From contig CAAFWO010000008.1 of the NCBI GenBank assembly GCA_900766735.1, positions 2,022 through 66,021 on the forward strand: 64,000 nt of DNA. The letters run 5' to 3'. Shown here one piece after another: positions 14,124 to 20,680 of the stretch. Position numbers and translations under genes: made by a program. This DNA is from Clostridia bacterium. GTDB taxonomy: Bacteria; Bacillota; Clostridia; CAKSNL01; HGM11501. The stretch's first letter is position 1. Each line of letters begins with the position of its first letter. The notes under the pieces are model-generated. The model saw nothing but the letters and a program-made list of their open reading frames with translations. It was not told where the DNA came from and did not search any database.

Positions 14124-14588
14124 ATGACATTTGAAGAAAGATTTTCAGAACTCAAAAAGATTATTTCCAAGAAAAGACCTAAGCTCGGTCCCGTTTTTGC
14201 AATTCAGGTCAATATGACCGACTCTGACTGTCACGGTACTTTCTATATCGCATATACAGACGGCACCTTGAGAGTTGAGCCCTATGACTACTATGACCAC
14301 ACAGCGATGATAACGGCAGACTCGAAGGTTCTGGGCGAGCTTTTGGAGGGCACGTTAACGCCCGGGAAAGCATATGAAGAGGGCAAGATCATTATCGACG
14401 GAAGCTTAGAGTCCGCAAAGGAGCTTACCAAGCTTTGCAAAAAGCCGGTCGTTAAGAAGGCCGCTCCCAAAAAGGCGGAGAAAAAGCCTGAGGTCAAGCC
14501 TGAGGTCAAGCCTGAAGTCAAGGCTGAAGTTAAACCCGAGGTCAAGACCGAGAAACTGAAAAAAGAGTGCAAAAAGAAAAGCAAATAA
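14124..14588 (+). CDS. SCP2 (sterol-carrier-like) domain protein with a Lys-rich KPEV-repeat tail
   Basis: About 110 aa with an SCP2-like pattern (FAIQVNMTD...GTFYIAY..., ADSKVLGELLEGTLTPGKAYEEGKIIIDG), followed by KKAAPKKAEKKPEVKPEVKPEVKAEVKPEVKTEKLKKECKKKSK. Confidence 0.6.
   Translation: MTFEERFSELKKIISKKRPKLGPVFAIQVNMTDSDCHGTFYIAYTDGTLRVEPYDYYDHTAMITADSKVLGELLEGTLTPGKAYEEGKIIIDGSLESAKELTKLCKKPVVKKAAPKKAEKKPEVKPEVKPEVKAEVKPEVKTEKLKKECKKKSK
14484..14552 (+). repeat. 12-nt in-frame tandem repeat (about 5.7 copies) encoding (K-P/A-E-V)n
   Basis: aagcctgaggtc aagcctgaggtc aagcctgaagtc aaggctgaagtt aaacccgaggtc aagaccgag. Confidence 0.9.
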
Positions 14589-14625
14589 CAAAAAAGCCGG
14601 CATTTGGCGGTCATTGATAAAACAG
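14586..14625. repeat. left arm of a 40-bp imperfect inverted repeat (putative attL: terminator half + element end)
   Basis: taacaaaaaagccggcatttggcggtcattgataaaacag matches the reverse complement of 20641-20680 at 34/40 positions. The first 16 nt are identical. Confidence 0.85.
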
Positions 14626-14661
14626 TAACATCAACAGACTGTCAAACGGAGTTGTCAAAAA

Positions 14662-14699
14662 ACACGCATATCACTTTTTAAGGTGGTATGCGTGTTTTT
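14662..14699. terminator. element-borne bidirectional terminator next to the left junction
   Basis: acacgcata (14662-14670) pairs with tatgcgtgt (14687-14695). An A6 run precedes it (14656-14661) and T-rich sequence follows it. Confidence 0.65.
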
Positions 14700-14876
14700 C
14701 GTGTGCTTTTATTTTTCTTAAAATGTCTACTCTGATATGTCACCATTTAGAGGTCGAAAAAGCCTTGTTTTATGCGGCTTTTAAGGGCTGAAATTGGCGA
14801 GGTAATATAATATCATTACTTTGCTCAAAAATGGGGATTTATTTTCTACAAAAATTACTTAAGTAAATGTTCATAT

Positions 14877-18898: not shown

Positions 18899-18974
18899 GA
18901 AAATGGGCGTTAAAATAAATACAAGCAATTCTGTTTTGACAGGCTGTCCGAACGAAAAGGAGGATAAAAATTAT

Positions 18975-20606
18975 ATGAGACAGTCTGAAAAAATTACAAT
19001 TTTATATTGCCGTCTCAGCCGTGACGACGAGTTGCAGGGCGACAGCAACAGTATTGTAAATCAAAAGAATATTTTAAGCAAATATGCAAAGGACAATGGT
19101 TTCAAAAATACACAGTTTATAGTTGATGACGGTTATTCGGGAACGAGTTTTCAGCGCCCCGGCTGGAATGAGTTGGTGGAGCTTATAGAAAACGACAAGG
19201 TTGAAACAATTATTGTAAAGGATATGTCAAGACTTGGGCGTGATTATTTGAAAGTAGGTTTTTATACCGAAATCCTGTTTGTCGAAAAGAACATACGGTT
19301 TATCGCCGTCAACAACGGCATTGACAGTAATAATCAAACCGACAGCGATTTTACTCCGTTTTTGAACATCATAAACGAGTGGTATGCAAAGGACACAAGC
19401 AAGAAAATCAAGGCGGTTATGAAAGCAAAAGGCGAATCGGGAAAAACATTGACAACAATTCCGCCGTTCGGTTATATGAAAAGTCCCGAAGATAAAACAA
19501 AGTGGGTTGTTGATGAGCCGGCAGCAGATATTGTACGAAAAATTTTCGGACTGTGTATGGAGGGGTACGGACCTTCTCAAATAGCAAAAATTTTGCAGAA
19601 AGAAAAAGTTTTGACCCCTGCCGCATACTGGCAAAGTATAGGACGGATAACAAATTTGCCTGTGCCCGAAGATCCGTATTGCTGGGTAGCCGATACAATT
19701 TCAACTATGCTTGAAAAGAAAGAATATTTAGGGCATACCGTAAATTTCAAGACCTATAAGCAATCATACAAAAGCAAAAAGAAGTTACATAACCCCGAGG
19801 AAAAACAAATGATTTTCGAGAACACTCACGAACCGATTATTGATACTGATACTTGGGAAAGGGTGCAGGAGCTGCGAAAAAATAAACGCAGACCGTCACG
19901 CACAGGGAAAAGCAATATGTTTTCGGGCATAGCCTATTGTGCCGACTGCGGTCAGAAACTGTATTACTGCACAAGTAATTATTTTGAAAGCAGACAAGAC
20001 CATTTTGTGTGTTCAACCTCACGCAAGGGCAAAGAAAATTGCTCAACACATTTTATCCGTGCGGTTGTTCTTGAAAAGGGCGTACTTGCACACTTGAAAT
20101 ATGTGATAGGTTTTGTTGCGGCTTATGAAAATCAGTTCCGTGAAATTATGGGTGCAAGGCAGAAAGCAGAGATAAAAAAAGAAATATCCGCAAAGAAAAA
20201 ACTGCTTGCAAAATGTGAAAACCGTATCAGCGAATTAGACTGTCTTTTCAAGAGTATTTACGAGGACAAAGCAAAAGGAATTTTGAATGAAAACAGATTT
20301 CAAATGCTTGCAGATGATTATGAATCAGAACAGCAGGAATTGGAATTGAAAATCACTCAGTTGTCCGTCGAAATATCCGATACAGAGGAACAAAGCGATA
20401 ATTTGGAACGGTTTATTTCAAAGATACATAAATATCTTGATTTGCAGGAATTAACACCGTCAATTCTGAATGATATGGTAAAACGGGTATATGTTCACGC
20501 ACCACAGATTATCGACGGAAAACGCACACAGCAAATTGATATTTGCTATGACTTGATAGGAATACTGCCGATGTCATTGCTTAAACAAAACAGCGAAACG
20601 GCATAG
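18975..20606 (+). CDS. large serine recombinase (TnpX/TndX-like, with a DUF4368-like C-terminus)
   Basis: The ATG at 18975 follows AAGGAGG. The resolvase catalytic region is [11 protein letters not shown] (Ser15). It also has a recombinase domain, a Cys-rich zinc-ribbon ([11 protein letters not shown]...[16 protein letters not shown]), a coiled coil and a C-terminal [18 protein letters not shown]...[10 protein letters not shown]. Confidence 0.88.
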
Positions 20607-20624
20607 AAAATACTATGCCGTTTT
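20597..20624 (+). terminator. terminator hairpin overlapping the recombinase stop codon
   Basis: acggcata (20597-20604) pairs with tatgccgt (20613-20620), followed by ttta. Confidence 0.55.
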
Positions 20625-20640
20625 ACCGAAATCATTATTG

Positions 20641-20680
20641 CTGTTTTATTAAGGACTGCCATTAGCCGGCTTTTTTGTTA
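20641..20680. repeat. right arm of the 40-bp imperfect inverted repeat (putative attR: element end + terminator half)
   Basis: ctgttttattaaggactgccattagccggcttttttgtta. The last 3 nt are the GH35 stop codon on the minus strand. Confidence 0.85.

Follow-up and report, generated by a model that had tools for sequence, protein, structure and literature searches.

In a 64,000-nucleotide stretch of DNA from a Clostridia bacterium (contig CAAFWO010000008.1; the whole stretch is called the window here), two convergent host genes, one for an SCP2-like protein and one for a GH35 beta-galactosidase, were separated by an AT-rich block. The block was identified as a large serine recombinase (LSR) element of ~6.06 kb, TnpX/TndX-like and with a DUF4368 domain in its recombinase, and the integrated element was the 6,059-bp segment 14605-20663. 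An original prediction, made from the letters of the window, had proposed a serine-recombinase element sitting in the loop of a bidirectional terminator, with no gene broken and with attachment (att) sites that could be read or reconstructed. All of its coordinates and sequences proved exact on re-reading, and the proposal was supported by an empty site in another strain, by a second copy elsewhere and by about 30 delineated relatives. The recombinase gene and the features at the two junctions were as follows.

14124-14588, plus strand: SCP2-like gene, 154 aa, left flank (Pfam SCP2, E=2.3e-7); the same gene lies beside the empty site in strain L092
14584-14602, no strand: attB left half-site (B), AATAACAAAAAAGCCGGCA, ascending half of the predicted host bidirectional terminator, joined to the right half in the empty site of L092
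14603-14604, no strand: crossover dinucleotide TT, left copy, at the dyad centre of the reconstructed attB and attP and at a 21-nt offset from the arm end
14605-14625, no strand: element left arm (P'), TGGCGGTCATTGATAAAACAG, 18/21 complementary to the right arm and identical in a copy at another locus (L160)
18903-20606, plus strand: large serine recombinase, 567 aa, TnpX/TndX-like, with C-terminal DUF4368 (Pfam, PDB and motif matches)
20641-20661, no strand: element right arm (P), CTGTTTTATTAAGGACTGCCA, with an outer CTGT(T/C)TTAT found downstream of the LSR in 58 related loci; identical in L160
20662-20663, no strand: crossover dinucleotide TT, right copy; the best-scoring core in the profile scan falls exactly here
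20664-20682, no strand: attB right half-site (B'), AGCCGGCTTTTTTGTTATT, descending half of the predicted host terminator, joined to the left half in L092
20678-22063, minus strand: GH35 beta-galactosidase, C-terminal 461-aa fragment, right flank (Pfam Glyco_hydro_35, profile positions 132-315)

Junctions of the element and its empty site

The TAA of the SCP2-like open reading frame (ORF) was at 14586-14588 and the stop of the convergent GH35 ORF at 20678-20680. Between them lay the two halves of a split hairpin, caaaaaagccggc (14589-14601) after the SCP2-like stop and gccggcttttttg (20665-20677) before the GH35 stop; the SCP2-like TAA was one base upstream of the A-run, and the left half was a perfect 18-nt complement of 20665-20682. 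Inside these halves, 14606-14625 matched the reverse complement of 20641-20660 at 17/20 positions, and CATT occurred at both junctions (14601-14604 and 20660-20663). The recombinase stop (TAG, 20604-20606) was separated by 34 nt from the start of the right repeat at 20641. Among 180 inverted pairs in 14300-21000, the longest was formed by the arms 14584-14628 and 20638-20682 (45 nt, 84% complementary). GC content was 0.46-0.59 outside and 0.27-0.41 inside, the change falling exactly at the two junctions. The sites attL (14584-14625) and attR (20641-20682) could be read directly, and attP was reconstructed as CTGTTTTATTAAGGACTGCCA-TT-TGGCGGTCATTGATAAAACAG and attB as AATAACAAAAAAGCCGGCA-TT-AGCCGGCTTTTTTGTTATT, both symmetric about a TT core shared by attL and attR. 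The outer part of the left arm, ATAAAACAG, was kept across the whole family.

An element-free site was present in strain L092, which was located by a HydF scan of metagenome contigs (HydF 99% identical) and was the sole close relative found. L092 aligned to 12000-14601 and 20665-22855 of the window at 97-98% identity; the two blocks were only 4 nt apart, which fixed the element boundaries to within the loop. The site read gcaaataac-AAAAAAGTCGGC-TAAT-GCCGGCTTTTTT-gttattctcc, a native hairpin of 28 nt lying one base from the stop codon of either convergent gene. Its RNA folds had energies of -24.9 and -20.9 kcal/mol on the two strands (z=-10.1 and -8.6), and no shuffle was as stable. With its A-run, GC stem and T-run and this stability on both strands, attB is predicted to be a bidirectional intrinsic terminator common to the SCP2-like and GH35 genes.

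The reconstructed attB agreed with L092 in length, in its stems and in its 4-nt loop size, but the loop was TAAT instead of ATTA (L092 10726-10729, compared with window 14602-14605 / 20661-20664), and the plus-strand core would read AA, not TT. The L092 hairpin was the exact reverse complement of the predicted attB, with one C-to-T stem change that makes a G-U pair. An element-free relative had been expected to carry the predicted attB itself; read literally, the TAAT loop departs from this, yet the palindrome is the same one with its core in opposite orientation. Since four adjacent differences had to be explained at a strain divergence of ~2%, one small inversion is indicated and not four substitutions. 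Such a flip may have come from a template-switch inversion of the hairpin loop, or the integrated element may have inverted between the perfect 18-nt stem arms and then excised. On entering an L092-type site, an element whose core is TT would take the opposite orientation.

Other searches for empty sites added little. A pattern anchored on the coding ends gave 0 matches in JGI metagenomes because of single-nucleotide polymorphisms in the anchor. A second empty site was sought through Sellimonas purC (the flank of locus L065), where synteny was lost at the purC stop in both relatives, making the comparison uninformative.

Relatives of the element at other hairpins

A copy 98.3% identical over 6.1 kb (L160), with identical 21-nt arms and core TT, lay between different genes in a different hairpin, AAAAAGAACGGA-TATTG-TCCGTTCTTTTT (around the core, caaataaaaagaacggata-TT-gtccgttctttttatttg). 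Mobility was shown by this near-identical element at a second hairpin, and the identity of its arms implies recent movement. In a further element (L158), the recombinase was 88% identical and the backbone was kept over ~250 nt at the left and ~2.3 kb at the right. In a third, sister lineage (P0252), a 7.24-kb element occupied at least 4 different hairpins, with core TT in all of them. A decayed backbone copy with 93-95% nucleotide identity to the window was found between ychF and serS (L172 6914-6960 and 10930-10980, also L173-L180). Its recombinase was frameshifted (148 + 395 aa), and in its right arm the left half of the host stem replaced the inner 8 nt, by which the right junction regained a full hairpin, AAGAGCCGC-TTTT-GCGGCTCT-TTTT.

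A genome scan with the recombinase yielded 80 loci in metagenome-assembled genomes of Clostridia, Oscillospiraceae and Lachnospiraceae and in several isolates, and the search for recombinase homologues gave at least 8,000 scored homologues. The end sequences had been proposed as a query beside other DUF4368-type recombinases, and the outer right arm CTGT(T/C)TTAT was indeed found there, in the 58 loci listed above. The right end ...CTGT(T/C)TTAT...CCC was conserved and was followed, after a few nt, by a GC-rich segment and a T-run. This segment and T-run were present in 45/58 right flanks and at 5.3% of random control positions, the test being made on the right flank only. When loci were delineated by arm similarity alone, 29/30 had an identical left and right core dinucleotide at the fixed 21-nt offset (chance 1/16 each), an identity expected as the signature of a 2-bp staggered exchange. 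The crossover of the window element is therefore placed at TT (14603-14604 and 20662-20663); it had been predicted to lie inside CATT, which was right, and it is now narrowed to the dyad centre of attB and attP at the offset used family-wide.

The host flanks of these relatives were mutually complementary through differing stems (GGACGC, CTGGCT, GACGCCG, GCGGCGGCCC and others), with a dyad axis no more than 1.5 nt from the core. Of 23 reconstructed attBs, 21 had an exact palindrome of 8 bp or more whose centre lay no farther than 1.5 nt from the core, as against 1% of control positions, a count to be taken as an upper bound, as the left ends of those 23 loci were chosen partly by flank complementarity. 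Owing to this bias, the palindrome statistic was replaced by the right-flank-only test and the arm-only delineation described above. An open frame pointing at the site and ending no more than 80 nt away was present at 23/30 sites versus 22% of controls, and convergent frames on both sides at 7/30 versus 1.4%. Relatives across gut Clostridia occupy many different terminator hairpins, with a family-wide preference for sites at gene 3' ends of the form A-run/GC-stem/short-loop/GC-stem/T-run.

A profile of attB half-sites (n=58) had A at 88/97/84% at positions -13/-12/-11, a predominance of G or A at -9/-8, and C at 64/59% at -3/-2, where attP had C at 91/97%. When built without the window and run over the window with the element removed, the profile ranked the true site and register first among ~58,000 positions, scoring 25.9 where the background averaged -22.4 (sd 9.9); the independent site ranked after it reached 17.3 (window 383). 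This second-best match, at ~363-404, was an unoccupied bidirectional hairpin, aaaaaaggtgtggc TG atcacacctttttt, and its TG core would mismatch the TT of the element. The original prediction had spoken of many near-identical targets, which did not hold, as the stem sequences all differed; what the targets had in common was an architecture with an A-tract at -11 to -13, with C at -3/-2 and with a short loop, and a weak half-site profile. Two intact terminators that it had likened to attB (31971-32009 and 51886-51923) were real A-run/stem/T-run hairpins, but they had longer stems and fell outside the top 15 profile matches.

Strict bidirectional hairpins were present at 17/31 insertion sites, and there were 19 in all host flanks examined. 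The distance from dyad to A-tract was 9.4 ± 1.3 nt at insertion sites and 10.6 ± 3.5 nt elsewhere, a narrowing that, at these numbers, is no more than suggestive.

The core was TT in all copies whose recombinase was 87% identical or more, the sub-lineage of the window element, and within this sub-lineage the core is heritable. Elsewhere in the family the core dinucleotides were TA (7), AA (7), TT (5), GA (4), TG (2), GG (2), TC (1) and CA (1). Some very close pairs differed in their cores, such as L049 (TG) and L051 (TA) at 99.5% recombinase identity, and also L040/L042 and L017/L018. In pairs of this type, the left and right cores were equal within each element, and arm position -1 was almost uninformative. 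Such quick turnover of the core is unexpected from canonical serine-integrase chemistry.

Taken overall, recombinase-driven integration into a terminator hairpin is very probably the right explanation of the locus. Serine integrases place a dimer on each att site, cut all four strands to leave 2-nt 3' overhangs and swap the halves by subunit rotation, and the core of attP must match that of attB. In the window, the recombinase would have joined a circular attP to the chromosomal attB, the terminator common to the convergent SCP2-like and GH35 genes, exchanging strands through a staggered cut of 2 bp at the TT in the middle of the 4-nt loop and so leaving attL and attR. Its dimer may read two near-identical duplex half-sites, with A at -13 to -11 and C at -3/-2, and for such a dimer a palindromic terminator with a 7-9-bp GC stem would be a ready-made symmetric attB. 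Landing in the loop would break no coding sequence, and the hairpins at the ends of the element (14658-14699 and 20596-20623) may replace the split terminator for both neighbours.

Several observations weigh against this explanation. Because of the TAAT loop in L092, which differs from the predicted ATTA, the ancestral site of the window insertion was not directly observed. The element was present in 16/16 contigs with an identical SCP2-like protein and in 14/14 with an identical HydF, and all contigs with an identical GH35 protein also carried it. The circular junction (attP) gave 0 matches in the 160 collected loci and 2 matches in viral contigs, at chance level. About 3-7 of 30 relatives had no complementary flanks (L015, L037 and L039, with L017 and L041 carrying extra inserts), and the preference for a given geometry over generic hairpins rests on 17 versus 19 sites. 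We infer both the terminator function and the DNA features read by the recombinase from sequence.

The two viral-contig matches to attP were rejected, as the inner arm sequence was missing and their number fitted chance. The L158 contig, which at 6.5 kb is of element size, was considered as a circle and excluded by its host flanks and the absence of a terminal overlap. In L015 (left end ~920, right end ~8200), the host flanks were non-complementary and the right flank resembled site D in L170, which suggests chimeric flanks produced by recombination between copies; chimeric flanks might also account for the other non-hairpin cases, L037 and L039. In L017 (~11738-11775) and L041 (~11759-11790), an extra nested hairpin of 18-23 nt lay between the right core and the host stem, and that of L017 was bordered by the core dinucleotide (TA tcgtagctttttacgctacca TA ggggg).

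Four other explanations were weighed. The copy in the window could be a fixed relic, integrated as described and no longer excising or transposing in this host. This is rather unlikely, but it has some weight, given that all contigs with identical flanking proteins had the element at the same site, that no circular junction was found in the loci searched, and that in the related L172-group copy, which had decayed, the recombinase was frameshifted and the right arm rewritten. Against it, the recombinase ORF, its catalytic motifs and both arms were intact in the window, the arms were identical to those of the 98.3%-identical copy at another site, and rare excision could not show in the assemblies searched.

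The flank complementarity of the relatives, which extended through the GC-rich part, counts against a second explanation, namely a relaxed, AT-biased specificity by which terminators are struck only for their A- and T-runs, with no preference for hairpins or gene ends. Durrant et al. (PMC10083194) described a multi-targeting LSR with a TT core and T/A-enriched flanks and interpreted it in this way, and low-specificity integration with a 2-bp exchange is described for Tn4451 in a review of integrative mobilisable elements (PMC5704250). For the family studied here such a specificity is improbable, as strict bidirectional hairpins were rare in the host flanks (19) and yet made up 17/31 insertion sites, the profile singled out the true site among ~58,000 positions, and the enrichment of gene ends held.

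Recognition of an extruded cruciform or single-stranded hairpin, as for integron attC sites and IS200/IS605, and not of duplex half-sites, would suit targets in which the stems all differ while the palindromic architecture stays constant and the dyad centres lie within 1.5 nt of the core. It is nevertheless quite improbable: serine recombinases work on duplex sites, a pure reader of structure would have no need of register-specific bases such as A at 88-97% at -13 to -11 and C at ~60% at -3/-2 (like the attP C at 91-97%), and several insertions with imperfect or non-complementary flanks still had the A-run and the C-rich end. Finally, although a 2-bp direct repeat alone cannot tell target duplication from a serine-recombinase crossover, it is scarcely credible that the 45-nt arms are a native long palindrome or chance repeat and that the AT-rich block came otherwise, for example by a transposase with a 2-bp target duplication, since the empty site holds the outer halves only, joined by a 4-nt loop, the inner halves move with the element to another locus (L160), the serine recombinase is the sole recombination gene with no transposase family detected, and the arms are conserved beside homologous recombinases in 58 loci.

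Genes and signals of the element and its host flanks

Besides the recombinase gene, the element contained the following features, listed here with the second part of the GH35 gene.

14658-14699, plus strand: bidirectional terminator-like hairpin inside the left end, 19-pair stem followed by a T-run; RNA fold -26.4 kcal/mol, z=-7.7
14877-18008, minus strand: 1043-aa cargo protein, N6-adenine methyltransferase and two Type I-like specificity (target recognition, TRD) domains in a single chain (Pfam)
17992-18213, minus strand: 73-aa ORF overlapping the start of the cargo gene; gene call on public contigs, weak PHROG match of unknown function
18234-18282, minus strand: promoter-like site TTGACA-17-TATACT with TG, overlapping a palindrome with 17-nt arms; 11/12 matches in the promoter scan
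18701-18898, plus strand: 65-aa backbone ORF with the motif Y-x-F-T-G-x-Y-x-G, 4 nt upstream of the recombinase; conserved
20596-20623, minus strand: terminator-like hairpin over the recombinase stop codon, 11-pair stem; RNA fold -20.7 (minus) and -17.0 (plus) kcal/mol
21955-22479, minus strand: GH35 N-terminal fragment (174 aa), Glyco_hydro_35 profile positions 2-134

The recombinase matched Resolvase (PF00239, 1.1e-23), Recombinase (PF07508, 1.9e-21) and Zn_ribbon_recom (PF13408, 1.3e-11) in Pfam, with DUF4368 (PF14287, E=1.1e-22) at its C-terminus (residues 505-570). Catalytic motifs YCRLS (residues 35-39) and SRLGR (residues 110-114) were present, and the top PDB match was the catalytic domain of TnpX (2mhc, E=2.3e-44). 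It was the only recombination gene in the element; family scans of the proteins of the window element detected no transposase, phage or relaxase/Mob family. MobC/NikA-like proteins occurred in just 4 related elements.

The cargo protein matched N6_Mtase (7.5e-34), Methylase_S (2.3e-22, in 2 stretches) and Eco57I (6.6e-11) in Pfam, and MTase_I / Specificity_I in PADLOC; its PDB matches included StySJI M and RM.BsaXI (8w0p, 1.9e-12). Its N-terminus (residues 1-221, ~220 aa) had no significant Pfam match, and a sub-threshold MAD2 match spanned residues 71-354. Judged by this architecture, the protein is probably a Type IIB/IIG-like restriction-modification (RM) enzyme, and RM the probable role of the cargo. 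An apparent 1040-aa RM variant in L002 was a gene-calling difference, the DNA being 100% identical.

Three unrelated RM systems were carried on one backbone: that of the window and L160; that of L158, which comprised two C5-methylases and a NOV_C protein; and that of the 7.24-kb element (L163-170), which comprised Vsr, a FokI-like nuclease, an NgoFVII-like enzyme, a C5-methylase and a helix-turn-helix (HTH) controller. The corresponding cargo coordinates were 14877-18008 (window), 740-3887 (L160), 465-3739 (L158) and 4142-8410 (L163). More distant relatives carried efflux pumps, ABC transporters, AbiEii-like ATPases and sigma-70 r4 regulators.

In the 73-aa ORF no HTH was detected, although its position resembles that of an RM controller gene; relatives had an HTH_26 gene at the equivalent position. 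The site at 18234-18282 was the strongest promoter-like match of the region and contained the inverted repeat 18242-18258/18266-18282 (94% complementary), and it is the likely promoter/operator of the 73-aa ORF and RM operon. Homologues of the 65-aa ORF lay directly upstream of the LSR in 15 delineated loci and also in L158 and L160. The database held 29 homologues of it, 0 of them named, and no family match was obtained in Pfam, NCBIfam, PADLOC or PHROGs; its AlphaFold (AF2) model had a pLDDT of 57. It is a candidate accessory or directionality factor.

The hairpin at 14658-14699 is terminator-like by sequence and fold; it faces read-through from the SCP2-like gene and would also end the RM transcript. 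The hairpin at 20596-20623, terminator-like on both strands, faces read-through from GH35, and closer relatives had perfect 10-14-bp stems at the equivalent place. The scan for internal end hairpins demanded strictly perfect stems, with no G-U pairs allowed, and under-detects them, so conservation of the end hairpins is claimed only for the right end and for closer relatives.

In the host flanks, GH35 was split in the window (20678-22479, minus strand) and intact as a 600-aa ORF in element-free L092 (10743-12545); the split reflects either an assembly error or a frameshift or pseudogene in the lineage that bears the element. In its 3' end (14472-14551), the SCP2-like gene contained five tandem 12-nt units, AAGCCTGAGGTC-like. 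They encode a K-P-E-V repeat tail, and the stop codon next to the attachment site follows closely.

Known systems and the proposed landing rule

Among the closest known counterparts are Tn4451/Tn4453 (TnpX; C. perfringens and C. difficile), which, like the window element, are ~6 kb in size, are moved by a single LSR with a 2-bp crossover, have ends that form imperfect inverted repeats and are not restricted to one integration site (PMC5704250). Tn4451 and Tn5397 have the core GA, the window element TT. Tn4451 has tnpX at its left end, with a promoter formed at the circle joint, whereas the recombinase gene of the window element stops 34 nt short of the right end. The cargo of Tn4451 includes a relaxase (TnpZ) and catP; in the window element there is a probable RM enzyme and no detected mobilisation gene. 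Integrative mobilisable elements bring their own relaxase or mobilisation proteins, and among the window ORFs no Mob or relaxase family was found. Targeting of terminator loops is not reported for Tn4451.

Tn5397 (TndX) belongs to the same recombinase clade, and a TndX-annotated Enterococcus plasmid protein was 37% identical over 92% of the query. Unlike the window element, which at 6 kb is non-conjugative and lies between genes, Tn5397 is large and conjugative and in C. difficile prefers a site within a gene. Far outside Clostridia, DUF4368 recombinases with 47% identity to that of the window were also annotated, on large Salmonella, Klebsiella, Enterobacter and Citrobacter plasmids.

Mobile RM units on small integrative elements are a known general phenomenon. 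RM cargo is common to them and, probably, to the window element; a serine-recombinase backbone dedicated to terminator loops is not in their descriptions. Durrant et al. 2022 (PMC10083194) defined a multi-targeting DUF4368 LSR clade that includes TndX-like transposases, Cp36, Pc01 and Enc9, and, as in the window family, closely related recombinases of this clade occur at many unrelated sites. What differs is that the flanks here form the two halves of hairpins at gene ends, and that their profile is register-specific; "terminator" and "palindrom" are absent from the main text of that paper.

Insertion at intergenic terminator or REP palindromes, sparing genes and using many sites, is described for group IIC introns and IS110/IS1111-family elements (PMC8643678, PMC12288879). 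Their machinery is a ribozyme with a reverse transcriptase, or a DEDD transposase with a guide RNA, and RNA-DNA pairing directs their insertion into the motif or next to it, whereas in the window a protein dimer would cut the centre of the loop. A search of the literature on serine recombinases, mobile elements, DUF4368 and TnpX/Tn4451 targets found no report of a serine recombinase targeting terminators. The machinery of the window element is thus ordinary for a known kind of element, and its terminator-targeting rule appears undescribed.

The balance tips slightly towards a broader statement, that a whole gut-Clostridia clade of TnpX-like LSRs has adapted to bidirectional intrinsic terminators in general, with their generic architecture serving as a safe-harbour attB. 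If so, its sites would form a sequence class that every Firmicute genome holds many times over and that coding does not constrain, the loop dinucleotide would be the only heritable and freely variable "address", and the terminators carried by the element would repair the site. The "relaxed specificity" of multi-targeting DUF4368 recombinases would then be, at least in part, a misreading of terminator targeting, and their landing sites would be predictable. DUF4368 multi-targeting integrases are already in use in human and bacterial cells (PMC10083194, PMC13137831), and the first-rank profile match in 58 kb suggests that integrase landing sites could be predicted, and perhaps redirected via the core dinucleotide. 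For the ecology of defence, one backbone shuttles at least 3 unrelated RM systems between terminators. The rule would give a large and abundant clade of gut-Clostridia elements a concrete description of where they land, and would explain why their insertions are tolerated.

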